Positions 13,734 to 63,999 of a stretch of DNA of 64,000 nt are shown one piece after another (position 1 is the first letter of the stretch; every line of letters begins with the position of its first letter). The stretch lies in IMG/VR virus record IMGVR_UViG_3300028591_000018, one strand, 5' to 3'. Origin of the DNA: an uncultured virus (IMG/VR IMGVR_UViG_3300028591_000018) (taxonomy: Duplodnaviria > Heunggongvirae > Uroviricota > Caudoviricetes). The notes beneath the pieces are model-generated. The model saw only the letters and a list, made by a program, of their open reading frames with translations. It had not been told where the DNA came from and did no database searches. A program made the translations under genes and the position numbers.

Positions 13734-15464
13734 TCACTCAAAAGCTTCACGGTTCAATTTAAATGCGACATAAGCATCCAGCATTGCCGCGACAGCGTCA
13801 ATTTTCTGGTCATAGCGTTTCTTATAAAGTTTTCGATTTCCGTTTGTATCTTCCAAAGTAATACAGTTACCCATCGTGAAAGACATCAGATCTTCATCAA
13901 ATATCAGCATACGTTCTTCGGAAAGTTTCTTCAATTCACCAAGCGGAACGGATTCTGTTCGAGCACCCTGCTTAACTTTTTCAATACCAAATCCGCCGTT
14001 TTCTGACGCCCAGCGTTCAATAAAATCCCGGGCATTATAGGGGTCATATCCAACACAGCGGACATCATAGCCGCAGCGAGTGATATGCTCATCTAAATCT
14101 TCGTAAACTTCCATCATGTTTAAAACTGGTCCGTTTAAAACAACCAGACTTCCTTCATTCATAAAACTGTCATACTTTATCCGCATGGCAGCCGGAAGTT
14201 TATTTAATGTAGAAGAGGAAATATAATTTCTGGTTTTTACGCCAAATGCTCCTCCACGAAGAGGAAACAAAAATGTAAAAGCGCAAAAGTCATCACCCTG
14301 AGAAAGATCGCATCCCATAGCACACGGCATTTTCCAAAAATCCCGTTTACGATGCGGCAAAGTTTCTTCATAGCTGAAATAATAGGTATACCCCTCCATA
14401 GGGATCCCGAATCGCTTGGCTAAAATATCATTTCTTGATGCAGGAGCTTTTTCAGCACGCTCAACATCCAATTGATAAACTTCATAAGTTACGGTTTTTC
14501 CAAGATTGGGGTTCGCTTTGATCCACATCTCAGGCAGAGCAACTTCATCAATGGAGTCAAGTTTGTAATACCATATCGAGACATGAGGAGCATAGTATTC
14601 GCCTTTTAAAATATCCATTAACTCCATTTTTATGGTGTCACCGGCGCCGTTACGGACAGTTCCTTCAGAGCTGATCGCCAGGATCAAATAATCATCAAGC
14701 TTTGATGCGCCTTGCTCAATAGCCCCAACCACGTCTTCACGAATATCGCCGGAAAGCCATTCATCGACAGTATTTATCTTTGTACGAAGTCCATTTAATT
14801 TATTAATAGACATCGGCCGAATCTCTAAAAGAGATCCGGTTAAGAAATTCTCAATACCCTTTTTCGTTGATGCCAATTTGCAGCGATCCGCTTTTGAACC
14901 AGTGGTATTTTGAAGCGAACCATCAGTCAAAAACTTAAACAATGGCCCTCTTGACCGGCTGATCGCAGTTCGAATTGGCGATAATACTTCATCTGCTTGC
15001 TTCATCGTCGGAGCGGTAGTGATTTGATGAGTTGTTGATGGATCTACATTCAGGAAATAAGACTGAATACAAGAGGCGTACATAGATTTTGCCGCGCCTC
15101 GTGCAACAATTAAATATTGCTTATTGATCAGCCGTTTTTTGATTCGTTTGGTTACATACCGTTTTAGATTAGGATCATAAACGGATCGATCGACAAAATA
15201 ATACCATCCAAAAATTTGTTCGGCCCACAACTTAAAAGTGTCCAGTAAATGCAAGTCTGAACCATCTGTGAGGGTGAGCTCATTTTCGCAATAAGAAATA
15301 AATCCTTCAACGGCAAGATCATCATAGTAGATGCCTGGATTTCGTATCAACTCGTCGATACGATTCATTTCCATTTCTATTGTCTGCGGAACAGGTATCT
15401 CTCCCCGCAGCACCTTTTGACGAAACTCACCGTAATAACGTGGTGTTGCGGTGTTTGAGAGCAT
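13734..15464 (-). CDS. terL: Terminase large subunit
   Basis: Walker A VARGAAKS, Walker B TVDEW, nuclease motifs GCDLSQGDD, YDPYNA and KIDAVAA. Confidence 0.93.
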   Translation of the reverse strand: MLSNTATPRYYGEFRQKVLRGEIPVPQTIEMEMNRIDELIRNPGIYYDDLAVEGFISYCENELTLTDGSDLHLLDTFKLWAEQIFGWYYFVDRSVYDPNLKRYVTKRIKKRLINKQYLIVARGAAKSMYASCIQSYFLNVDPSTTHQITTAPTMKQADEVLSPIRTAISRSRGPLFKFLTDGSLQNTTGSKADRCKLASTKKGIENFLTGSLLEIRPMSINKLNGLRTKINTVDEWLSGDIREDVVGAIEQGASKLDDYLILAISSEGTVRNGAGDTIKMELMDILKGEYYAPHVSIWYYKLDSIDEVALPEMWIKANPNLGKTVTYEVYQLDVERAEKAPASRNDILAKRFGIPMEGYTYYFSYEETLPHRKRDFWKMPCAMGCDLSQGDDFCAFTFLFPLRGGAFGVKTRNYISSSTLNKLPAAMRIKYDSFMNEGSLVVLNGPVLNMMEVYEDLDEHITRCGYDVRCVGYDPYNARDFIERWASENGGFGIEKVKQGARTESVPLGELKKLSEERMLIFDEDLMSFTMGNCITLEDTNGNRKLYKKRYDQKIDAVAAMLDAYVAFKLNREAFE

Positions 15465-19188: not shown

Positions 19189-21987
19189 CTAAATATTGCC
19201 GTTCTTCTGTTCTCTAACGTAATAAAGGACAGTAGAAACCGGAATATTCAAAGATTCTGCGATCTCGGCATTAGAATAACCGGAACGGCGCAGAGAAAAT
19301 AATCTCGTGATTTTTGTATTGCTGAGCCCTTTTTCGGACCGTGGCGTAGCATACTCACGGACGGTATTCGTATCAGTAGCATCTAATATTTGCTTCAGCA
19401 GCGAATCAGATATTGCGCCGGCCTGAATAGCGGTCCACTCTTTCGGCGTAATATTAATCTTATAGCGCTGGGCACCTACTTCAAGCCGTGCAGCAGTCAG
19501 AAATTGCTGAGCGTACTTTCCGCTCTGCTTCTTGTCATCCCGAAGCTCCGGGTTCTCTTTGTAAAGTGCCTGCATGCGCACATTGGCACGGCGCTGGGCT
19601 TCACGTTCACGGGGGGCATTCAATCTCGAGCTGCGCAATTTTTCTTTAAGTGAATCCACTTCATTCTTAAAAACTTTCGCGGCAGACGGACTGTACTCCA
19701 GGTTCGGTGTATTGTACTTGTACTCTTTGCGAGCCTGATTGGCAAGCGCCTTGAGCTGTGATGCGTAACGGGCATAGAGCAACTCGGTCGGGTTCTGCTT
19801 TTCAGAGACAAGTTCATAAGGATCATCGATCTCGAGCATGCGGAAGCTCTCCTGAGTGCGGGTCTTCTCTCGGCCCTTCTCATCAATATAGTGGGCATCA
19901 AAGGCTTCTTTCCAAACCTTCTTGCCTGTCTCCTCATCAACATCAAATTCTCCGCGCCGCTTGGCAACACGTTCAGGGCTCTTGGCACGGGTCACGATAG
20001 TACCGGATCCATAAACCCAGCGACCATCCTCATTGTAGTGGCCCTGATATTTGTCCTTAAGCTCCTGGATCTTGTTCTCTTCTTCAGACAGCTTGTAGTC
20101 AAGCTTGTGCTTCTTGGCGTCAATGACAACCATTGAATGCTTCACTGCACGGGCAACCTCATCATCCGGAGCACCGGCAAGGGTCATGTCCATAATAAGA
20201 TTCGTGATCTTGCCCATCTCCATGTCTGTACGCTGCATGTACTTCATACCGGGCCGTTCAGGATATGAGACTTCAGGATCGAACCCTTCAAGCTCTTTCA
20301 AATATTGTCGATGAGAGACCTGCACTTTAGAGGATAATGGAATGACCATGACTGTGTCACCATCAAAATCAGCGCCGGACAGCTGCTTGGCTGTCTCTGC
20401 ATTAATACCGACTGCATCGGTCGGATTTTTAGTCAGCATAGAAATTCCTTCACGGTTCTTGTTGTTCACCGTAAGGACCGGGATCTCAAAAATTCCTCCA
20501 TGAGGGTAACGGACAAGCGCAACCTTCTCGCCATCCTTAAAGTTAGGAGCATAAATTTGGTCGTTCTTCATGCTCTTGATTGGAATAATGACCTGATAGC
20601 GCTGACGCGGAAGAGCTGCCGCATCCAGATGAACTGCAGTCGAGTCACAGTCTTCAGCAAAGGTTTCTAATAATCGGCGCTTGACGGTCGGATTTGTTAA
20701 ATTACAAATATCCTCGTACTCGGCCATCTTGTCTGCAATTGACAAATCAAGCTGATTTTTTACCAGCTTAATATTCTGCTTGGACAAAAATTGGGAAGGC
20801 AAAGATTTTGACCAGTCATTCCAGTCCCCTTCATCAGCACGTTTATTAATAAGCGATAATTTCCGTTCACCGGTCTTTGAGTCAATATAGTGGCTCTGGC
20901 CTTTTGCAGAAATATAGGAACCGAAGGGATTCATCGGATCATCAGTCTTAATATCCTTAAACGGGTCTTCGCCTTTCTCACGAGATTTTCGGGAATTGTA
21001 AATAATGTCATACCCATCCGGAATATCGTCGGAATATACTGCCATCCCTTTCATATATTTCTTTCCGTCCACTAAAATTCGGACTTGAGAATATCGGGAA
21101 CCGCCAAGTGATAAATCCTCCACACCGGGGCGAATTTGAATAAGGCCGTCACGCTGGTCACCGCCGTCTTCAATATATTTGACTAAAATACGTTTGCTGT
21201 CCATAGAAGCAGGATATTCAAATTTGTCAAATTTTTCTCCGCTTCCATCCTGAGAAGCATATTCAAATAATGGATTAATTTCTCCATACTGATATGCCTG
21301 ATTCTTCGGGGATCCGGGAGGACATAAAACCTTCAATGTCGTCCGCTGCCCATGTTCATTTGTAACCTGAGGCATGGAACCTACACGAACTTCATATCCT
21401 TCTTTCTTTAAAATATCGACAGCCTGTGTAAGCTTCTCTTTGGAAATATTCAATTCCCGATTTACTTCCGCGCCCACGTCGACCGGACCTTTTTCATCAA
21501 CTACTTTTTTCAAAAAATCAGCTGTCTGCTGCGCTTTATTCGCACGGCGCTGACGCTGCTTGTCAATAATTGAACGAAATGTTGATTCCGGAATACCCAT
21601 ACGCCGAGCTGCCTCGGTTTGAGATACTCCGTCTTTAATTAATTGGTTGGCCCATTGAATTCTGTATGCAGAAATATCGTTGTTTGATCTGCGGATCTCT
21701 GCACGAAGTTCAGATGTAGTAGAATATCCGCACTTCTTCGCGATCTCGATCTCAGAATATCCCTTGCGGCGCATCTTGCGCACACGGTTCAAAAAATCGA
21801 GTTCATGCTGAAAAGGAACTTCACCGGATCCCCAAGGGTATCGCCCTGAGTGTCTCTTTGTTCCGTAATGGGCGAAAAAATCCTTGTCTGCTTCCGGTGC
21901 GGCAACCGAAAGTAAAATATCCTGTGCAATGTCATTGTCAAGATTCATTGCCAGTGTAAACAAAATATTCTTTGCGATGCCGTTCAT
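19189..21987 (-). CDS. Single-chain two-barrel RNA polymerase (YonO/QDE-1-like) with HTH domains
   Basis: GADFDGD (DFDGD at 20356-20370), RYPH, DGLIQI/SQVR/MKG, VVIDAKK; HTH-like segments at both ends. Confidence 0.8.
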   Translation of the reverse strand: MNGIAKNILFTLAMNLDNDIAQDILLSVAAPEADKDFFAHYGTKRHSGRYPWGSGEVPFQHELDFLNRVRKMRRKGYSEIEIAKKCGYSTTSELRAEIRRSNNDISAYRIQWANQLIKDGVSQTEAARRMGIPESTFRSIIDKQRQRRANKAQQTADFLKKVVDEKGPVDVGAEVNRELNISKEKLTQAVDILKKEGYEVRVGSMPQVTNEHGQRTTLKVLCPPGSPKNQAYQYGEINPLFEYASQDGSGEKFDKFEYPASMDSKRILVKYIEDGGDQRDGLIQIRPGVEDLSLGGSRYSQVRILVDGKKYMKGMAVYSDDIPDGYDIIYNSRKSREKGEDPFKDIKTDDPMNPFGSYISAKGQSHYIDSKTGERKLSLINKRADEGDWNDWSKSLPSQFLSKQNIKLVKNQLDLSIADKMAEYEDICNLTNPTVKRRLLETFAEDCDSTAVHLDAAALPRQRYQVIIPIKSMKNDQIYAPNFKDGEKVALVRYPHGGIFEIPVLTVNNKNREGISMLTKNPTDAVGINAETAKQLSGADFDGDTVMVIPLSSKVQVSHRQYLKELEGFDPEVSYPERPGMKYMQRTDMEMGKITNLIMDMTLAGAPDDEVARAVKHSMVVIDAKKHKLDYKLSEEENKIQELKDKYQGHYNEDGRWVYGSGTIVTRAKSPERVAKRRGEFDVDEETGKKVWKEAFDAHYIDEKGREKTRTQESFRMLEIDDPYELVSEKQNPTELLYARYASQLKALANQARKEYKYNTPNLEYSPSAAKVFKNEVDSLKEKLRSSRLNAPREREAQRRANVRMQALYKENPELRDDKKQSGKYAQQFLTAARLEVGAQRYKINITPKEWTAIQAGAISDSLLKQILDATDTNTVREYATPRSEKGLSNTKITRLFSLRRSGYSNAEIAESLNIPVSTVLYYVREQKNGNI

Positions 21988-21993
21988 AAAAAA

Positions 21994-22557
21994 TTATGCC
22001 TCCATTTCCTTCAGCTGGATGTCTCTTAAAATTTTGTCGAAACTCTTGATCTTATCCATGATCTCAGAAATACGATCCGGATCCGGAGTTTCATAAATAA
22101 TCTCGTTGGACTGATAAATTCTCAGCTCAGTTTCAATCTCATGCGGATCAAAGTGATACTCGAGACAAAATAGCGCATTATAAATATGAAGCTGCTCCAT
22201 ATGAGCAGGGATGGTCCCCGTCTTCAGATCATGAATGCGCAATAAATTCTTTCGATAGCTGATCGCATCAGCAGTACCGAAGCAATTCTCTGAAAAATAC
22301 AGGATCTGCTCGGAATGCATCTTATACCCGATCGCATCATTGACAAACATATTTAATGTCAAATTCGACTTGGGCAGCCGCTGATTCAGCTTAATACACT
22401 GTGAAGCAAAATCATGCAGCATGGTTCCGCGTTCCTTTGCAAGATCATTCTGATAGGTTTCAATGAGTTTCTCGGGATCGTAATTGATCCAATGATACTT
22501 GGACGCACCTAAAAATGCGTGCCTACCCTCAAGGTTGGAATGATTGTTGAAGTTCAT
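21994..22557 (-). CDS. PD-(D/E)XK nuclease-like protein (DUF2800/Cas4-like)
   Basis: RGTMLH, FGTADAI, IHDLKTG, QLHIY. Confidence 0.75.
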   Translation of the reverse strand: MNFNNHSNLEGRHAFLGASKYHWINYDPEKLIETYQNDLAKERGTMLHDFASQCIKLNQRLPKSNLTLNMFVNDAIGYKMHSEQILYFSENCFGTADAISYRKNLLRIHDLKTGTIPAHMEQLHIYNALFCLEYHFDPHEIETELRIYQSNEIIYETPDPDRISEIMDKIKSFDKILRDIQLKEMEA

Positions 22558-22819
22558 AAAAAACCTCTTCCTTATTCTCAGGGCATATGAAACGAGAAAA
22601 TGACATGCGGTTCAGCATGTCAACGTAATATTCCTGGTTTGGCTGTTTGTGCTCATGCGCAGACTTTTTAGTTTCAAGCATTGCCCAGTGCTTTCCATAG
22701 AGCACCAAAACATCAGGAATGCCTTGCAAATAGTTCGCATCATTCTTCAAAACAACACAACCCGGAAAGCGCTCTTTCAATTCATCGATCACGCGCTTTT
22801 GAAATATTCTTTCAAGCAT
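22529..22819 (-). CDS. VRR-NUC domain nuclease
   Basis: ERIFQ..GIPDVLVL..LETK..QPNQ; start at MLERIF with GAAAGGA RBS. Confidence 0.85.
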   Translation of the reverse strand: MLERIFQKRVIDELKERFPGCVVLKNDANYLQGIPDVLVLYGKHWAMLETKKSAHEHKQPNQEYYVDMLNRMSFSRFICPENKEEVFYELQQSFQP

Positions 22820-22836: not shown

Positions 22837-23000
22837 TTGTCTGAATATTAGAGCTGTCCTGGCCCACCTTCTATTTCCGCCATAGTAAAGGAGAAAAAAT
22901 GTAAAGGAGATTGGCCCATGAAAAATAGAAACCTATGAAGAAAGGGAGGATCTTCATTGGAAAATAGAAAGTGGGATAGGCCGGCCCTAATCTCAGACAA
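22837..23000 (-). ncRNA. Structured leader/ncRNA with anti-SD segments
   Basis: Nested inverted repeats (TTGTCTGA/TCAGACAA, ATTAGGGC/GCTCTAAT, CCCACTTTCTATTT/AAATAGAAGGTGGG) enclosing three CTCC(C)TTT tracts. Confidence 0.55.
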
Positions 23001-23070
23001 AAAAATAAGAGGCCATGTACTGATCATGGCTTCTTAAAAACAAAAGAGAGAAGAAACTATCTTCTTCTCT

Positions 23071-23098
23071 CTATAAAAGGGCATGTTTTTTATGCGAA
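23071..23098 (-). promoter_or_regulatory. Phage promoter motif copy 1
   Basis: TTCGCA-TAAAAAACATGCCC-TTTTAT-A. Confidence 0.7.
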
Positions 23099-23109
23099 GT
23101 CAGAAAATA

Positions 23110-23406
23110 TCAGATTCTGTCCTCGCGTTCATCGAGTTCATGCTGGTGATTCTTATGACAGATCACGCATTCGGGAAAATTCGTACGGCATGAATAACAT
23201 TCAGGGCCATAGGCTTCTACGTACTCGTCAAGAAATTCTTTCCTTGTGATGACTGCTCCGCACTTCGGACAAATATAGCATTCCTTTTGCGGATCCCACA
23301 TCATAAATACTCCGCAGCAATCAGTAAGTACACCTTCACCATCCTGGTCATAAACGTCTTCATAGCGGTCACCAAAAATGGCACCGCAATCCACATCTCT
23401 TATCAA
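23110..23406 (-). CDS. Cys-rich Zn-finger protein
   Basis: CC, CPKC, CYSC and CVIC pairs. Confidence 0.6.
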   Translation of the reverse strand: MIRDVDCGAIFGDRYEDVYDQDGEGVLTDCCGVFMMWDPQKECYICPKCGAVITRKEFLDEYVEAYGPECYSCRTNFPECVICHKNHQHELDEREDRI

Positions 23407-23634
23407 GTTCGGTTTGGCTCCTTTCGAAATATTAATGGTCTATCCATTATACCCGAAAGCAGCTCCCATTAACCAAATAGAAAATATTCGTCCCTACGAC
23501 CTTATCAACCTTATTGATCTTATTGATCTCATTGGTCTTATTGACCTTATAGGTTTTTTCAACCTTCCAAATCGGTTGAAAAATACCCATCTTCAAACCC
23601 CTTAAAATCAGCATGAAAACCCTCCAAAAACCGC

Positions 23635-23915
23635 TTCTGCCCATTTGCCCACTTTTTTTTCTATATTACTATATATATTACATTTTTCATTTTTTAATTT
23701 CATTAATAAAAAAGGTGGGCAAATGGGCAGAAAGCCCTTTTTTGATCAATTTTACGAGTAAATTTGCCAAAAATCTCTGCCCACTTTTGATTTTAAAAGT
23801 GGGCAATTGCCCACTTTTTTTGGGCAGAAAGCAATTTTTTCAACTTCCAAAACCCAAAAACCCAAAATAAAAGTGGGCAGAAGCCCATTTTTGGCCACAA
23901 AAGTGGGCAGAAAAA
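23635..23915. repeat. TGCCCACTTT/AAAGTGGGCA repeat cluster with AT-rich core; probable replication origin
   Basis: About 10 (T)GCCCA / TGGGC(A) units in both orientations; a ~24-bp inverted repeat flanks a ~50-bp AT-rich spacer. Confidence 0.65.
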
Positions 23916-24293
23916 TGGACATAAAATTCGGCACCAAAACCGCTATTTTTTAACCACTTTTTCCACCTTTAAATTGCCTGTTACAACCCCTCTGACAATG
24001 TTAGCACCAAGAATATCGATGCAGTCTTCCCGACCTTTAAATGGACATTTTTCGCAATTGTTCTTATTTTTTTCAAGATTCGTGCAGTTGTTCAAAATAT
24101 CAAGTGTATCATTAGCAGACTTAAATGTTAACATCATCTTGTTTCTCCTTTTCTGTTTCAGAAATATCAATGCCTTCAGCCGGCAGCTCACGCTTTACCT
24201 CAAATACTTCAATGGCTTCTTCTTTAGCCTTCTGTTCATTCAAGGCATCGATGTACACCTGAGCAATATTCTCAACGATCTTTTCAAAAATAT

Positions 24294-45938: not shown

Positions 45939-48900
45939 TCAAACAGGTTCCGGAACATCCCGGAACCATTCGAAATCACCATACTGTGAAATATCAATTA
46001 TCGCTTCATCCACCAATCGGTCATAATAAGACCGGTCTATGAATGCATCATAGTTGCCAAAATCCCGGATATCTTCTGATTCCATCCAGAGATAATCTTT
46101 GGCTCCTGCTGCGGAATCGTATTTCACATTTCCGTCTTTATCAATAGCTTCACGAACGAGCCGTCCGCCACCCATTCCCGGTTTAACCGGACAAAATTGC
46201 CCGACACGACCAACGAATTGATAGTCATGTTCTCCTTCCGGAAGCTTTTCATTAAAATCAAGAACCAGACAGCTGGTTACCTGTTTGGTTTCGCACATGT
46301 CTTCGAACTCAATCGGCGCTTTAGCAAAGAGTGTTTTAAAGACATACGGAACCTGAAATTCTGTACCGGTTGCAGTCCAGCCTTTTTTCCAGGCATTTTT
46401 TTTATCTGTCGGATCCCAATTTTTATCATGAGCAATGTAAACAGCATCATTCACCAGACAGAATCGGTCAAACTCTGCTTCTGTTTCAAAGTTGTAACCG
46501 AACTCATGCCCAAAAGCTTTTACAAAGTCAAATATCTTTTGATCCCAATTCGGAATCTTGATTGAATCAGTTTTTATGTGCGCCACCTGATAGCCGCGCT
46601 TTTGCACTTCCTGCTTCAGCAGTGTCATGAACAATGCGCCGCGTTTGGCCACAATATTATCCTTATTCCGCAGATCCCGGAATGGATTCTCAAACCTGGC
46701 ACTGGTCAAACCATACACCGAGTTGATTGCAATCTTCAAAGCATTTGCCAGCCCCTTTGCCTGATCTGCATTCGTCAGCCACTTCGCCAGTTTTCCATCC
46801 ATCATCTTTGCAGCTTCTGAAAAGTCACCGGTTTTAATGGCTTTCTTTACCGCTACACGAATATCCACAAGGTCATAGAACTTTCGGCTGTACTTTGGCC
46901 CAAAGAGTCTCTCAGCCCATATGCTGTGGGGGTGCATAGAAGTTACATCTGCGTCCCAGACATTTCCGTACATACCGGGCTCAGAATATACTCGTCCACC
47001 CTCTCCGATCTCCTGATCAAGATAAGTTGATTTCCCAGCATCAAACTTATACCCGGGAAAGAAGGGCAGGATCGAGTATCCAGAGGGTAAGGATCCTCCA
47101 TTGTAAGTTTGATAGGTTGGTAATCCGCTGCTGTCGAACACGTGAAATTCATAATCTTCTCCAAATAGTTCCCTGTACTCCGAATATCTTTCCGGACCGA
47201 CCGGTTCAGCCAGATTGCGGTAGTTAAACTGACTTTGCGGGTTCCGGTCCTGACCGAATATAATTCGGGTTGTCAGACTGTTGGTTGTGGCGTTAGGTGT
47301 CATTCCGGCAATATCTGCCAAAATCATCCGTGCCAGAAAATCGTCCTGACGATCCTTACTGAAAAATACCGCCTCGGTTGCGATCACATCATTATCACAA
47401 TAAAGAGCAACTTCCTCCCAACGATCCTTCGGAACCGGCTGATCCCAGGGAAGTGCCAGTTCTTTGTGATGGATTCCCAGATCGATTTCAAATTTTTTCA
47501 GGGATTGTTTTACACTGCTGAAGTCATAAATATCTGTATAGGAAACTTCATAAGCATCTCTGAAAAATGCGTTCTTATCTTTATCGATAATCCCTTTGGA
47601 AACTTCATAGATCTGTTCAAGATTCTTACCAAGTGATCGTGCATACAAAATATGATTGTCATATCTCCGACAATTGAAACCGACAAGATGAAAATTGGTC
47701 ATCAATTTGTAAACTTCTTCCGGATCCGGGTTGAACATCCGTACCGGAGGATGGTCAGGGCCCGGATACTTCCAGCAGATCAGCAAAAGATTCGGAAAGA
47801 CCTCAACATCGAAAAATATCAATGGGAGATTCTCATTCTGTTCTTCTGCAGTCGGTTCAATATAATCATCGGAGCATAGTTTCATCTTTCCGACAAGCTT
47901 GATTGCTTCCCTGGCATGGTGAGTGGACTGTGCAGCAAATGAATAAATTGCATCATGCATCTTCCGCACATCATAAGACAAACCGTCATTGTAGGCGCGT
48001 TCCAAATCGTTGTAGATCATGTTGACACAGTTATATGTGCCATTGACATTTTCTTTATTCAGGTTTCGCTCGATCGCCTTGATCAGTGCTTTGTCGTTAA
48101 TAAACGACTTAAAATTAATCACTTTCTTTTTCTCTTTCTTCAAAGGGAGACCTGAAGAAATCGTGGCTACCGGCAGGTCATTGCATTTTGTCAGCATTCT
48201 CCGGAGAGAACTTCCGCCATTAAACACCTTTACTTCAATGTGATCCGCGTAATTGATCTGCAGCTCGGTCGGATCACCCTGATAAATATAATGCAGGTGG
48301 ATTCCGGCACCGGACTTACTTAATTCTGCGTAAGTCGGAGGCCATTTTGAAGCTGCTTCCAGATTCTTTTCAAAACATTTGTTGCCGTTTTCATCCGGAA
48401 TATCAAAGTCAATGACAATGTGCTCCAGCGGCACTTTTACATAATGCAATTTTCGTGTGTTGATGCCTGAAAGTTTTGTAAAACAATTATCCCAGGCTTT
48501 CAGCGGAGTTCCTTCTGAGTTTGCATACTGAGCAGGAGCTTTAGCCATGAGAATATCAAACAGGGAATCTTCACAGTTAAATGTCAGCCATTTATCGTCC
48601 TTTTTATCTCCATTTTGAATGTCTTTCTTTTTCCAGGTCTCTTCGAATTTTTCGGTTTTGAATCCACTGAACCAACTGCGGATCCGTGTTCCGTCTTCGA
48701 GTGTGACCCGATCTTTATAGTCTTCAAAGTAGTTTTTCAGTTCTTCTTTGAAAGCTCTTTGGGAAAACGGATAAACTACTTTAGCTTCCTCGCAGAATGT
48801 TTTATACATGTCATACGCAGCTTTCAGTGACACTCCGTTTTCTTTTTTAAACACAAAATAGCTGTCCGAGACAAAGTTGAAAAAATCATTTGACGCGTCC

Positions 48901-53924: not shown

Positions 53925-53981
53925 TTTTGTTTCCTTTCTTTTTTTTTTTCAAAAAATAAAGAGCAGATAATCCATGTCTGC

Positions 53982-57531: not shown

Positions 57532-58065
57532 TTAACTTCTTTTCTTAAACATTCGATCGAAATCGAATGCATGCCGGGAAATATCTTTCCCCGATGCAGA
57601 GGTGATCGTCTCACCTCCTGCCTCAAACGTGTTCTGGCGCTGCATCAATGCGCCATAACATATGAATGATACTACGGTACCTGCAATGCTCAACAGAGCA
57701 TTGAGGAAACCATTTCTCTTAATAGATTTAACCTCTTCTACCCGAAGAGCAATCTCCTCCTCGCGGCACTGCTTATCGAACTCGATTTTTTCAAGTTCGG
57801 CTTCGGATTTTTTCTTTTCGAGTTCAAGCCGTGTATGTGCGACTTGTACCTCTTTCATCGTTTTTAACGATGAAATCAATTTTTCCGATTTTTCTGGCTG
57901 TTCATCCGAACAAGCCATGGCCTTTTTCAATAGTTCATCCGACGCTTCTGCGTAGATGTCTTCCGGAATTTCAACGATTTCCGGGTTTTCAACAATTTGT
58001 GCCGCTTCTTCAGCGACACTTATTTCATTCACAGATTTATTATTTTTTTGATACTTCTTTCCCAT
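57532..58065 (-). CDS. Coiled-coil protein with C-terminal TM (cassette gene)
   Basis: Own promoter, hairpin and terminator; AAAGGAG RBS. Confidence 0.7.
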   Translation of the reverse strand: MGKKYQKNNKSVNEISVAEEAAQIVENPEIVEIPEDIYAEASDELLKKAMACSDEQPEKSEKLISSLKTMKEVQVAHTRLELEKKKSEAELEKIEFDKQCREEEIALRVEEVKSIKRNGFLNALLSIAGTVVSFICYGALMQRQNTFEAGGETITSASGKDISRHAFDFDRMFKKRS

Positions 58066-58112
58066 TTTTCTCCTTTTTTACAAAAAATAAAGAGCAGATC
58101 ATCCGTGTCTGC

Positions 58113-59211: not shown

Positions 59212-59535
59212 TCATTTTTTCTGATCCTTTTCATATTGTCGTTTGAAGAATTCAAAAGCCTTGTCGACCGTAAGATAACCGACTACTTCATCACCATATT
59301 CTTCTTCTGTAATATCAAAACCCATCGCTTCCAGAAGTCCGTACTCATGACCATATGAACCCATATTGCACACAACATCCCCACATCCAGGCTTCCTAAG
59401 TTCCCATTTTCCATCTGAGGAATACCGGATCTGTCCGCCAAATATTGGATTATCATCACATAAGAATTCATGCGGAATTCCGGCGATTTCAAGTTCTTCA
59501 TGCAATTTCTGTAACGGTTTAATTAAATCTGTCAT
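59212..59535 (-). CDS. Hypothetical protein
   Basis: MTDLIKP with GGAGG RBS; GSYGHEYGLLEAMG..VVGYLT. Confidence 0.7.
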   Translation of the reverse strand: MTDLIKPLQKLHEELEIAGIPHEFLCDDNPIFGGQIRYSSDGKWELRKPGCGDVVCNMGSYGHEYGLLEAMGFDITEEEYGDEVVGYLTVDKAFEFFKRQYEKDQKK

Positions 59536-59559
59536 TTTACCTCCAATAAGATCCAATAG

Positions 59560-59658
59560 AAAAAAAATAAAAGAAGTTGAACCGAATCGAACGGTTCCAG
59601 GCGGGCAGACAAGACCCGTCGCCCACTCACAAACTTTCGTTTGCTTTAACTTCTTCTC
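59560..59658 (-). ncRNA. tRNA-like small RNA (non-canonical)
   Basis: 8-bp closing stem, GAAA-tetraloop arm, central arm and GAACCG-TTCGATT-CGGTTC T-arm; own promoter (copy 12, 59657-59684) and T tract. Confidence 0.65.
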
Positions 59659-59683
59659 ATTAAAGTCCATGTTAATATTGCGT

Positions 59684-59826
59684 AAAAAATAGCAGGAGAT
59701 GTGTTAACTATAAACTCTACCTGTTGTGCAGCTATCTCACAACAGCAACTTTATAGCAACGGATATCTCCTGCTTAATTTAATGCCAGCTCATTTTTTCT
59801 CCTTTCTTTAAGTGAACTAGCTCCTA
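59684..59826 (-). ncRNA. Small RNA with SD and MSWH minigene (59779-59793)
   Basis: Promoter copy 13 at 59823-59850; AAAGGAG-AAAAA-ATG AGC TGG CAT TAA; long AGCAGGAGAT/ATCTCCTGCT terminator stem. Confidence 0.65.
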
Positions 59827-59848
59827 TTTAGACTATGTTTTTCATGCG

Positions 59849-59954
59849 AAAATAAATAGGAGAAGCGCCTGCAATTAACGCTTCTCCTTTCAAATAATTA
59901 ATAATATTTGTACAGTGCTAGGTCATTTTTCCTCCTTCCTATTGCACTCTCATC
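59849..59954 (-). ncRNA. Small RNA with SD and MT minigene (59918-59926)
   Basis: Promoter copy 14 at 59953-59980; AAGGAGG-AAAA-ATG ACC TAG; AGGAGAAGCG/CGCTTCTCCT terminator. Confidence 0.65.
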
Positions 59955-59979
59955 ATTATAGAAGATGTTTTTTTCGCGG

Positions 59980-60071
59980 AAAAAATAAGAGCCTTTGCAA
60001 CGACTCTTATTTTTAATAAATATCTTTGCACCTCCTTTCTTCATAGGAACCTGCTTTCGGGTATGCAGGTC
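59980..60071 (-). ncRNA. Small RNA with orphan SD
   Basis: Promoter copy 15 at 60070-60097 (TTCGCA-N14-TATAAT); ACCTGC/GCAGGT hairpin; AAAGGAGGTG; AAAAATAAGAG/CTCTTATTTTT terminator. Confidence 0.6.
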
Positions 60072-60097
60072 ATTATAGAGAATGTAAATCTTGCGAA

Positions 60098-60514
60098 TTA
60101 TTTCCGCAATTTCGAGAGGATCCAGAAAAATCTTCGAAAGCTTTCATAATACGTTTCCTTACAGCAGGGAACGTCCATACGAGCCGTCAGGTATTCATAG
60201 GAAATTCCTTCTGTGACTCCTTTGAAAATATAATTTCCCAAATCCTCCGAACAAGCTTTTGCCGCCTTATCAACCATATCCAGATGGTCTGTCAGCAATT
60301 CCCGCCGCAGCACAGCCGTAAGAACCGGATCACTCGGCCCCGCGGATTTTCCAATTTTTTCGGAATACGGCGATCCCATCAGGCTGATCATTTTCAGCTC
60401 TTCCTTCCATTCCGGATACTGAAGGCAAAAATGCTTCAGCTCATAAAACCGATGTCTGCTGATCCAGTATGAACTGCGCTTTGAGATCTCAGGACGAATA
60501 TTGGTACCCATCAC
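60098..60514 (-). CDS. Putative transcriptional regulator (RinA/ArpU-like)
   Basis: ELKHFCLQY.EW..DPV..A; C-terminal HTH-like ISYEYL..TYYESFRRFFW. Confidence 0.5.
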   Translation of the reverse strand: MMGTNIRPEISKRSSYWISRHRFYELKHFCLQYPEWKEELKMISLMGSPYSEKIGKSAGPSDPVLTAVLRRELLTDHLDMVDKAAKACSEDLGNYIFKGVTEGISYEYLTARMDVPCCKETYYESFRRFFWILSKLRK

Positions 60515-60753: not shown

Positions 60754-60836
60754 AAATTTCTCCTTTCGTGAGTCTTCTATCTCCGAAACTTATTCTATGA
60801 TAGCCAGGCGTAATCTAAAATAAAAACTTATGTTGA

Positions 60837-60890
60837 AAAAATAAAAGGAGTTGTAAAAATAAAAGGAGTTGTAAAAATAAAAGCCCTTGT
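60837..60890. repeat. 18-bp tandem repeat (2 exact copies and 1 variant)
   Basis: AAAAATAAAAGGAGTTGT twice, then AAAAATAAAAGCCCTTGT. Confidence 0.85.
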
Positions 60891-61085: not shown

Positions 61086-61131
61086 CTTTTTTCTCCTTTT
61101 TTAAAACAACGAGCAGATCATCCATGTCTGC

Positions 61132-61159
61132 TCAATAAAGGAGTTGTAAATTTTGCGAA
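61132..61159 (-). promoter_or_regulatory. Phage promoter motif copy 16, with GAGCAG hairpin at 61111-61133
   Basis: TTCGCA-AAATTTACAACTCC-TTTATT-GAGCAG. Confidence 0.72.
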
Positions 61160-62374: not shown

Positions 62375-62433
62375 CTATAGTCCATGCGCACATCGCGAAA
62401 AATAAAGAGCCCTTGTGGGGCTCGTTTCAAAGG

Positions 62434-62655
62434 TCAGTGATGACCTTTGAACAGAAATACTTCTAAGTCTGAGTCGTAGTCCAACTCTGACTCTGAAACC
62501 TTTTTTACTGGCTGCTTTTCTGCAGCCTCTACGTCTTCGATATACCCTTTGATATATCCAAAAACCCCAATTAACGTGACAGTAGCTGCCACAAAACAAT
62601 AAATTGTATTTATTGTTTCAATAATTTTTTTGATTATTTTAAAAAATTTTTTCAT
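62434..62655 (-). CDS. Single-TM cassette protein
   Basis: AAAGGAG RBS; promoter copy 20 at 62704-62731, GAGCAG hairpin at 62683-62705, terminator at 62398-62423. Confidence 0.7.
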   Translation of the reverse strand: MKKFFKIIKKIIETINTIYCFVAATVTLIGVFGYIKGYIEDVEAAEKQPVKKVSESELDYDSDLEVFLFKGHH

Positions 62656-62778
62656 ATTTTTTTTCTCCTTTTTAAAAATAAAGAGCAGATCATTTATGTC
62701 TGCTCAATAAAGGCGTTGTAAAAACCGCGATTATAAATTGTAGGAGTATAATAACTTCTACAAGGAGAAAAAATATCA

Positions 62779-63999
62779 ATGCTGATAAAGTGTCCGGAAT
62801 GTGAACTGTCAGTGAGTGATAAAGCCATTATATGCCCTCACTGCGGCTATCCTTTAAAGCCCGAAGCGAAGAATATCAATTACCGATCCACCAGAAGGAA
62901 GCGCCTTCCGAATGGTTTTGGGCAAATATCAAAGATCAAAGGGGCGAACCTTCGTAAACCTTTCCGAGCCATGGTCACGATCGGAAAAACCGACGAAGGA
63001 AAACCCGTATGCCGATTATTACAGCCGGAAGCCTACTTCGAAACCTACAATGATGCTTATCAGGCATTAGTAAAATATAATAAAGATCCATATGTATTTA
63101 GCAATAATTTAACTGTTGGAGAGCTATACGAAAGATGGAGTGAATATCATTTTAAAACAATTTCTGCAGGTGCGGCGACAAACCTTGGAGCAGCCTGGAA
63201 ATACTGCAATTCCATCAAAAATATCAAACTTGTTGATCTGCGAAGTCGGCACATAAAGTATTGCATGGAAGAAGGAACTGTTACACTAAAAAACGGAAAT
63301 ATCAAACATCCCTCAGTAAACATGAAAAACGTGATTAAAGTCATGTTTAATCAAATGCTTGATTATGCTGTTGAATACGAATTGATCGATCGAAATTATG
63401 CCCGAAACTTCTCTGTATCAAAAGAAGACCGTAAAGAGATGGCAGAAAACCGTGAAAGCCATATCCCGTATACTGATGAAGAAATCGAAAAACTCTGGGA
63501 AAATATCAATTTCAATGAAGTTATAGGTATTATTCTGATTCAGTGCTATACCGGTTGGCGTCCGAAAGAACTTGAAATCATGAAAATCAGTGATATTGAC
63601 CTTGAACTTGGAACCATGAAAGGCGGTGTCAAAACCAGAGCCGGCAAAAATCGCATTGTACCGATCCACTCAAGAATCTATGATCTCATTAAAAAGTATT
63701 ATGAAGCCAGTAAAAAATCCGGCAGCGAATATCTTTTTACAATGACCGGCCGCAGCAAACTATTTTCCTACACGAAATTCGATTGGAACCTGAAACAAAT
63801 CAAGTCACAATTAAATCTAAACGACCGTCACCGTCCCCACGATGGTCGTGCGCACTTTATCACCCAGGCCAAAAAATATCACATGGATGAATACGCCATC
63901 AAACGAATCGTCGGACATGAAATCAAAGACCTAACCGAAAACGTCTACACCACCCGAGATCTCGAATGGCTAAAAGCCGAAATCGAAAAAATACCTTAA
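62779..63999 (+). CDS. int: Tyrosine integrase with N-terminal Zn ribbon
   Basis: TGWRPKEL (R), KT (K), HDGR (HxxR), VGH, VYT (Y); AAGGAG RBS. Confidence 0.92.
   Translation: MLIKCPECELSVSDKAIICPHCGYPLKPEAKNINYRSTRRKRLPNGFGQISKIKGANLRKPFRAMVTIGKTDEGKPVCRLLQPEAYFETYNDAYQALVKYNKDPYVFSNNLTVGELYERWSEYHFKTISAGAATNLGAAWKYCNSIKNIKLVDLRSRHIKYCMEEGTVTLKNGNIKHPSVNMKNVIKVMFNQMLDYAVEYELIDRNYARNFSVSKEDRKEMAENRESHIPYTDEEIEKLWENINFNEVIGIILIQCYTGWRPKELEIMKISDIDLELGTMKGGVKTRAGKNRIVPIHSRIYDLIKKYYEASKKSGSEYLFTMTGRSKLFSYTKFDWNLKQIKSQLNLNDRHRPHDGRAHFITQAKKYHMDEYAIKRIVGHEIKDLTENVYTTRDLEWLKAEIEKIP

Follow-up and report, generated by a model that had tools for sequence, protein, structure and literature searches.

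A small promoter–terminator unit in an uncultivated phage genome carries two exact complementarities to the regulatory region of a nuclease–RNA polymerase operon 37 kb away

Results

The window, by which we mean the whole 64,000-nucleotide stretch of DNA that was analysed (IMG/VR record IMGVR_UViG_3300028591_000018, Caudoviricetes), has a G+C content of 40% and reads as a temperate phage of the ruminant gut, with near-identical DNA present in sheep and goat gut metagenomes; its host is probably a Firmicute. Apart from the integrase gene (62779–63999, plus strand), nearly all genes are carried by the minus strand, and the gene for the large terminase lies at 13734–15464. Among the minus-strand genes are those of a nuclease–RNA polymerase (RNAP) operon (19189–22819), which opens with an endonuclease-like gene (22529–22819) and continues with an exonuclease gene (21994–22557) and the gene for a single-chain RNA polymerase of 932 amino acids (19189–21987; phrog_4291 at 1083 bits). 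Because the exonuclease and the endonuclease-like gene precede the polymerase, 'RNAP operon', as the initial annotation called it, is a fair name. The polymerase has HTH domains at both ends and a Pfam RdRP match that is weak and below the cut-off, and its phrog_4291 family label suggests that it is of the YonO type. A blastn search with the 58–62 kb part of the window against a phage collection returned no match.

Within this part, in the early region of the phage, ~560 nt separate a gene at 60098–60514 from the next real start at 59535, and this gap is filled by a cluster of four tandem small promoter–terminator units, each with a motif and a terminator. The first of the four, unit 1, occupies 59980–60097 on the minus strand, where we recovered every feature that the initial annotation had described. 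Its promoter-like motif begins directly after the stop codon of the upstream gene and consists of a CG-rich upstream hexamer (60097–60092), a 14-nt spacer and a −10-like hexamer (60077–60072). Folding then places a 5′ hairpin with a 6-bp stem and a 10-nt loop at 60070–60049, in agreement with the hairpin proposed earlier, and this is followed by a Shine–Dalgarno (SD)-like core (60029–60047) and by an intrinsic-terminator-like hairpin with a U-tract (~60014–59980). In both the MFE and the centroid folds the terminator hairpin has a 13-bp stem followed by six U, and it folds better than most of its shuffles (z −2.9; 2 of 200 fold equally well), which bears out the terminator that had been claimed, even though a pattern/consensus terminator scan did not include this hairpin among its listed sites. 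Unit 1 therefore seems to have the make-up of a small terminated transcript of ~85–90 nt. In its predicted fold, one of the two segments with complementarity elsewhere in the window lies in the hairpin loop and the other in a mostly unpaired tract.

The SD-like tract had been described as an orphan, with no start codon behind it. In the window this is so, as ATG, GTG and TTG are all absent at a usable distance 3′ of the tract, but as a conserved trait it fails, with relatives carrying mini-ORFs at this place. In contigs of three close relatives, the motif, the hairpin and the core are invariant and the 14 nt behind the SD (60015–60028) differ at five positions; the changes give a start codon and an immediate stop, only ~4 nt from the SD. 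Two other relatives, G002 and L048, have a start, one Lys codon (with a synonymous difference between them) and a stop behind the SD of unit 1, and L133 resembles the window in having no start codon there. The 'orphan' SD is thus an allele of this window. An ORF of 48 amino acids that runs over the unit (59898–60044) was rejected as a gene: it lacks an SD, it spans a terminator as well as two of the promoter-like motifs, and neither G001 (another relative) nor G002 preserves it. Rfam gave 0 matches in the window at the gathering threshold, and a permissive search of 59400–60200 gave as its best match rli43, over unit 2, at 22 bits versus a threshold of 100. As for the sequencing runs, one that is labelled RNA (X13) yielded three contigs and depths identical to those of the DNA run X12 from the same sample, apparently one data set filed twice.

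The other three units lie on the same strand. The motif of unit 2 (59858–59979) stands directly after the terminator of unit 1 and is followed by an SD, an ORF of two codons and a terminator (59858–59888); the unit is missing from G001 and G002 and occurs in the window alone. Unit 3 (59690–59850) comprises a motif, an SD with a short ORF of four codons, and a long hairpin with a U-tract, and at the start of its ORF the nucleotide sequence is conserved in G001, G002, L048 and L135. The SDs of both units are strong. Unit 4 (59560–59660), which has its own motif, is a conserved cloverleaf-like (tRNA-like) RNA built from an acceptor-like stem, a tetraloop hairpin, an invariant long arm and a T-arm-like hairpin, the last followed by a U-tract. 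Copies of it are found in L028 (2213–2311), L031 (2214–2310), L133 (1169–1267), L135 (765–861) and L137 (1161–1259), and in their alignment the block is near-invariant, with a consensus fold of 31 pairs, six of which are changed on both sides, and with covariation in the T-arm-like hairpin. As a tRNA, unit 4 was recognized neither by ARAGORN (0 genes) nor by Rfam (no tRNA or tmRNA match); a distant relative, L122, has a normal-looking tRNA gene at its position. The block was not found in samples of 401 genomes of one family (three short matches) or of 399 scored genomes of the class.

The motif at the head of unit 1 had been taken for a consensus-like promoter. The hexamers are indeed present, but the motif is not of the sigma-70 type: the sigma-70/SigA criterion places the hexamers 16–18 nt apart, and because the spacer here is 14 nt, the consensus scan lists no site at 60072–60097. 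We therefore defined a phage-family motif as a CG-rich hexamer, 14 nt and an A/T-only −10-like hexamer, lying on the gene strand before genes or RNAs. The window has 11 sites of this class on the gene strand (starting at 62399, 61399, 60097, 59980, 54009, 38170, 35141, 34329, 32092, 23098 and 3197, minus strand) and 0 on the other strand, with a mean of 0.71 in 200 shuffles; G002 has 10 on the gene strand versus 2 on the other, and G001 has 3 versus 3, without enrichment under the strict pattern. Downstream of homologues of the upstream gene, the motif was present in all seven of the distant loci that we inspected out of 80 kept, and in one distant locus it stands immediately before a tRNA gene. 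Within the phage family it normally precedes an SD and a gene, and many copies run straight into a hairpin and U-tract. These placements suggest that the motif is likely a phage-specific promoter, common across a large uncultivated phage family.

The gene directly upstream of unit 1 (60098–60514, minus strand) encodes a protein of 138 amino acids belonging to phrog_11237. An alignment query found 522 relatives of the gene in one scan, and a single-protein query found no relative in viral contigs. The predicted structure of the protein, which is of good confidence (pLDDT 82.9), resembles, over residues ~63–138, chains of sigma region 4, although weakly (VIA-align Z 4.1–4.7, rmsd 2.2–3.0), and its best VIA-align row, a chain from a Q-antiterminator complex, is weak as well (Z 5.5, rmsd 8.2). 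Its match to NCBIfam RpoE (E 0.025) is far below the cut-off, no PDB sequence matched below E 0.65, and Foldseek gave no match to the model at E 0.001 or better. The protein is a candidate for the factor that recognizes the promoter-like motif.

The feature of unit 1 that had first drawn attention was a 14-nt core (60034–60047) said to be the exact complement of the minus-strand RNA at 22932–22945, ~37 kb off, and so it is: the window contains the exact 14-mer at two places only, 60034–60047 on the minus strand and 22932–22945 on the plus strand, with 0.02 matches expected at up to one mismatch. The statement that more than half of the core lies outside the SD also stands, as 8 of its 14 bases are upstream of the SD core, and the target does lie in the leader of the RNAP operon, on the transcribed (minus) strand before the endonuclease-like gene, the exonuclease and the polymerase. 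The pairing runs on across the SD, to leader position 22949, with one bulged base. When the whole RNA was used in a k-mer search, another exact 14-mer emerged, in which 60051–60064 is the complement of 23449–23462; this segment comprises the hairpin loop and 4 nt of the 3′ stem, and the 5′ hairpin that contains it has no differences in the contigs of the three close relatives. The complementarity of unit 1 to the regulatory region of the RNAP operon is thus wider than initially reported and includes the anti-SD arm of a second gene, which encodes a Zn-ribbon protein. The two 14-mers fall within 31 nt of the RNA, and their two sites fall within one regulatory region on the transcribed strand, with the site of the loop segment (site 1) 517 nt upstream of the site of the core (site 2) on the same strand, 36.6–37.1 kb from unit 1. 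A simple inverted duplication was rejected as the origin of the matches, as there is no extended similarity and the two matches are in the wrong order for one inverted copy.

Both target sites fall in predicted hairpins. Between them lies the gene for the Zn-ribbon protein (23110–23406, minus strand; 98 amino acids, TTG start), which is kept in G001 and G002. Its 5′ UTR forms a hairpin (23398–23478; z −3.27; 0 of 200 shuffles fold equally well) that sequesters the ribosome-binding site (RBS), and target site 1 (23449–23462) is the anti-SD arm of this hairpin. In the window, G002 and G001 alike, the MFE structure pairs the Zn-ribbon SD with an arm lying upstream of it, and the sequences involved differ between the three. 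The corresponding z is −2.21 in G002, and the value of −1.29 obtained for G001 is not that of the MFE structure, the coordinates used having left out the 5′ arm of the hairpin. The site 1 arm matches the loop of unit 1 exactly and pairs with its own RBS arm through mismatches and wobbles; because the cis hairpin holds the Zn-ribbon SD, the RNA would have something to compete with. Site 1 also overlaps a −10-like hexamer, so it may lie upstream of the transcription start, in which case it would be outside the mRNA.

The leader of the operon (22868–23098, minus strand) starts with a copy of the motif (23073–23098) and two terminator-like hairpins (23045–23072 and 23012–23030), which are followed by a pyrimidine-rich stretch with three anti-SD tracts. 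Target site 2 belongs to a small hairpin here (22925–22965; z −2.43; 5 of 200 shuffles), the 9-nt loop of which exposes an anti-SD tract; the site lies partly in this loop and partly next to it. In the fold of the leader, the SD of the first gene pairs with bases just 3′ of site 2, not with site 2. Because a distant relative, L018, likewise has an operon leader with a motif, a hairpin, an anti-SD tract and an SD, the family as a whole seems to share the anti-SD leader. Upstream of the Zn-ribbon gene, 23480–23960 (minus strand) is noncoding and rich in short repeats, both direct and inverted, and it includes a stretch rich in A/T; similar repeat regions lie at the same place in G001, G002 and L018, and the region has the look of an origin or of a stretch that binds protein at several sites.

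When inverted 14-mers were counted against shuffles, a single match of this kind proved unremarkable and at the level of chance. The window contains 24 maximal inverted exact matches of at least 14 nt, compared with a mean of 11.9 in 40 dinucleotide shuffles (sd 3.6, maximum 21), and 3 of the 24 join the RNA cluster to the regulatory region of the RNAP operon; blastn assigned the core match an E of 0.18–0.23 (0.09–0.23 for a single inverted 14-mer). Further comparisons started from the RNA itself and kept the two noncoding target regions fixed. Among dinucleotide shuffles of its first 57 nt, 0 of 3000 reached 14 nt at site 1 and 1 of 3000 did so at the leader, and by duplex energy 0 of 300 shuffles were equally good at site 1 and 16 of 300 at the leader. 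Natural RBS windows of the same genome were equally good in 1 of 124 cases at site 1, 6 of 124 at the leader and 0 of 124 at both. In a genome-wide duplex scan, the energies of which permit long internal loops and are a relative measure only, site 1 was the best of 4263 windows and the leader was outside the 10 best. Co-folding puts the RNA of unit 1 on the arms of the sites.

At the leader, the segments involved are the inverse of a generic RBS, and the RBSs of other genes match them equally well or better. Unit 1 is outranked in the window by a 16-mer from another gene and by a 15-mer from unit 3, in which the segment from SD to start (59791–59805) is the exact complement of leader positions 22887–22901, and this 15-mer also matches the RBSs of other genes. 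Because the target regions of the window were chosen after the matches had been seen, we rate the window alone at about the 1-in-100 level, and the clean test is that in G002 alone.

Two relatives hold both loci: G002, with a polymerase 83% identical to that of the window, and G001, with one 73% identical. Searches for more such genomes gave none, the metagenome scan returning nothing but short contigs and a G001 copy; G003/L048 is fragmentary and lacks the polymerase region. In G002 the regions and the RNA were set by homology, and the pairing sequences differ from those of the window. Even so, only 1 of 300 and 0 of 300 shuffles had equally good duplex energies at the two regions, and natural RBS windows were equally good in 0 of 127 and 2 of 127 cases, and in 0 of 127 at both. 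Across the G002 genome, the leader was the best of 6009 windows for unit 1 and site 1 was the fourth, and the loop region of the 5′ hairpin of the RNA contains an 11-mer exactly complementary to site 1. At the G002 leader, the RBS regions of three other genes align better than unit 1 does, and in the co-fold the RNA pairs with a different leader segment. G001 keeps both loci as well, and there shuffles were equally good in 228 of 300 and 237 of 300 cases and natural RBS windows in 116 of 139 and 80 of 139.

The initial annotation had held that absence of the match from close relatives keeping both loci would speak against a regulatory pairing, and on this point the two genomes disagree: there is complementarity in G002, but none above the null in G001. 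Pairing is thus kept with a different sequence in one of the two relatives and lost in the other, and the compensatory changes that can be counted in the leader pairing amount to about two base pairs. What stands above chance, with a statistical excess in two genomes (the window and G002), is the second 14-mer from one RNA combined with the partial replication in G002.

An exact 14-nt antisense match was seen in G001, between 85678–85691 and 47124–47137 (L043/L045). One copy, with a different sequence, ends at the distance from the Zn-ribbon gene's −10-like hexamer at which site 1 ends in the window, and its partner lies in the variable part of the gene upstream of unit 1; E is ~0.13 for the region, and the placement is striking. 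A 17-nt antisense match between L018 and L126 was set aside as a coding coincidence, because both strands code for lysine-rich peptides and the genes are oppositely oriented.

Discussion

The initial annotation proposed that unit 1 encodes a trans-acting regulator of, or sponge for, the leader of the RNAP operon. Its make-up of a small transcript, the second 14-mer and the result in G002 favour a trans-acting role, whereas the chance level of a single 14-mer, the null result in G001, the generic nature of the leader and the lack of conservation of the orphan SD count against it. Weighing these, we tentatively favour a reading in which unit 1 specifies a trans-acting RNA that mimics an RBS and thereby relieves anti-SD sequestration. 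The motif would transcribe unit 1 into an RNA of ~85–90 nt that ends at the intrinsic terminator; the loop of its 5′ hairpin would pair with the anti-SD arm (23449–23462) by which the Zn-ribbon RBS is kept shut, provided that this arm is within the mRNA, and its SD-like core would pair with the anti-SD loop of the small leader hairpin (22932–22949). The likeliest outcome would be that RBS sequestration is relieved, an anti-antisense form of activation, such that transcription of the early RNA cluster would license translation of the Zn-ribbon gene and of the polymerase operon, 37 kb downstream. We infer both the pairing in vivo and the positive sign of its effect from the sequences, and cleavage or an effect on termination would be equally compatible with pairing. 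Because an SD followed by a mini-ORF is present in most relatives, ribosomes may occupy the pairing segment.

The main alternative, which we consider somewhat unlikely but serious, is that unit 1 is an expression cassette, empty or minimal, or else a promoter-proximal attenuator, its sole role being control of read-through into the genes beyond it, with the matches arising from inverted generic RBSs and one chance 14-mer. Either the promoter, RBS and terminator would have stayed behind when a gene body was lost, or the unit would yield a short terminated RNA beyond a regulator gene. The habit of the motif across the phage family, where it normally precedes an SD and a gene and many of its copies lead directly into a hairpin and U-tract, fits such a cassette, as do units 1–3, which are RBSs with ORFs of zero to four codons, the leader, which matches other RBSs as well as it does unit 1, and G001, which lacks the complementarity. 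A known precedent is the PR′–tR′ 6S RNA of phage lambda, in which a regulator gene, a promoter and a short terminated transcript follow one another, and the RNA is a by-product of antitermination control that is not known to have a base-pairing target. Unit 1 has the same order of gene, promoter and short terminated RNA, and the best fold match of the protein encoded upstream is a Q-antiterminator chain, although the resemblance to Q is weak (Z 5.5, rmsd 8.2). A cassette or attenuator leaves unexplained, however, the 14-mer between the non-SD loop and 23449–23462 (0 of 3000 shuffles) and the way in which unit 1 of G002 outdoes natural RBS windows (n = 127) at both regions. It also sits uneasily with the fact that, although the sequence has turned over, the window, G002, L048, L133 and G001 all retain the unit with its hairpin and terminator.

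An RNA that acts through the ribosome without a base-pairing target, as a highly expressed minigene with a strong SD and a start–stop or two-codon ORF that titrates initiating ribosomes or causes drop-off of peptidyl-tRNA, appears improbable to us. Such effects have been described for the bar minigenes of phage lambda, and the start–stop in three close relatives, the start–Lys–stop with its synonymous difference between G002 and L048, and the mini-ORFs of units 2 and 3 would all suit a minigene. Against it, a start codon behind the SD is lacking in both the window and L133, the SD spacing in the close relatives is only ~4 nt, and the complementarity of the hairpin loop goes unaccounted for. 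Least probable is an element acting at the level of DNA, in which the inverted 14-bp copies would be sites of one phage DNA-binding protein beside the −10-like hexamers of unit 1 and of the Zn-ribbon gene: both copies of the loop 14-mer do lie within ~25 bp of a −10-like hexamer, and the different 14-mer of G001 ends at the same place relative to that of the Zn-ribbon gene and has its partner inside the gene upstream of unit 1, but the sequences are wholly different between genomes, so that the specificity of the protein would have had to change each time, the copies differ in their spacing to the −10-like hexamers, and in each of the three genomes the right arm of the local inverted repeat falls on the SD, an indication that RNA is involved.

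Activation in trans by an RBS-mimic RNA has parallels in several documented systems. In the DsrA/RprA regulation of rpoS, the RBS is held by an arm of the leader and is released when a small RNA pairs with that arm; these small RNAs are chromosomal, Hfq-dependent and proteobacterial. The hairpin loop of unit 1 similarly matches an anti-SD arm exactly, but unit 1 differs in being itself RBS-like, in matching two separate leaders and in having a host that is probably a Firmicute. Phage immunity RNAs offer a second parallel: the c4 RNA of P1/P7 and the CI RNA of P4 have two exposed segments that are complementary to one target transcript and that vary between related phages. They are processed from, and act on, the same nearby operon, which they repress by blocking translation or by premature termination. 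Unit 1 shares with them two exposed segments complementary to two sites, but it is not in the operon of its target, from which it is 36.6–37.1 kb apart, and for it activation is the more natural prediction.

By analogy, the closest documented case appears to be IsrK of the Gifsy-1 prophage. IsrK is a short RNA with a promoter leading directly to an intrinsic terminator, beside a gene for a transcription regulator, and its action in trans allows a phage mRNA that is translationally inactive to be translated, thereby switching on a phage transcription factor (PMC4825925). Unit 1 would likewise be a promoter–terminator RNA beside a putative regulator gene and is proposed to activate in trans. The two differ in that the target of IsrK is a read-through form of its own transcript whereas that of unit 1 is 37 kb away, and in that IsrK controls a Q-type antiterminator in an enterobacterial host whereas a polymerase operon would be controlled here.

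A broader form of the favoured reading, which we offer as a speculation that is more probably wrong than right by some distance, takes in the whole cluster. Units 1–3 would constitute a set of RBS-mimic decoys beside the tRNA-like unit 4, and the variable segments that they expose would fit the anti-RBS arms in front of the Zn-ribbon gene and of the polymerase operon. The set would serve as an RNA-based timer for, and a strain-specific determinant of compatibility in, the switch of the phage to its own polymerase, a positive long-range counterpart of the antisense immunity of P1 and P4.

If the RBS-mimic reading is true, an RNA that opens the ribosome sites of the polymerase operon would give a testable mechanism for the timing of the switch to own transcription in phages with a YonO-type polymerase, and an example from a Firmicute phage would join the few phage RNAs that activate translation in trans. 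The promoter of YonO itself is reported as undefined (PMC5467207). The motif, together with the gene whose product weakly resembles sigma region 4, offers a second way into the transcription programme of a large group of uncultivated gut phages.

Two minor features of the intergenic sequence may be recorded beside the motif. One terminator-like hairpin sequence recurs at four intergenic sites on the minus strand (~62650–62690, 61120–61150, 58060–58100 and 53930–53960), each time followed by a U-tract and an SD. At 60835–60885, also on the minus strand and just 3′ of a terminator-like hairpin, there are three tandem copies of an 18-nt sequence that is similar to the motif core but has no upstream hexamer.
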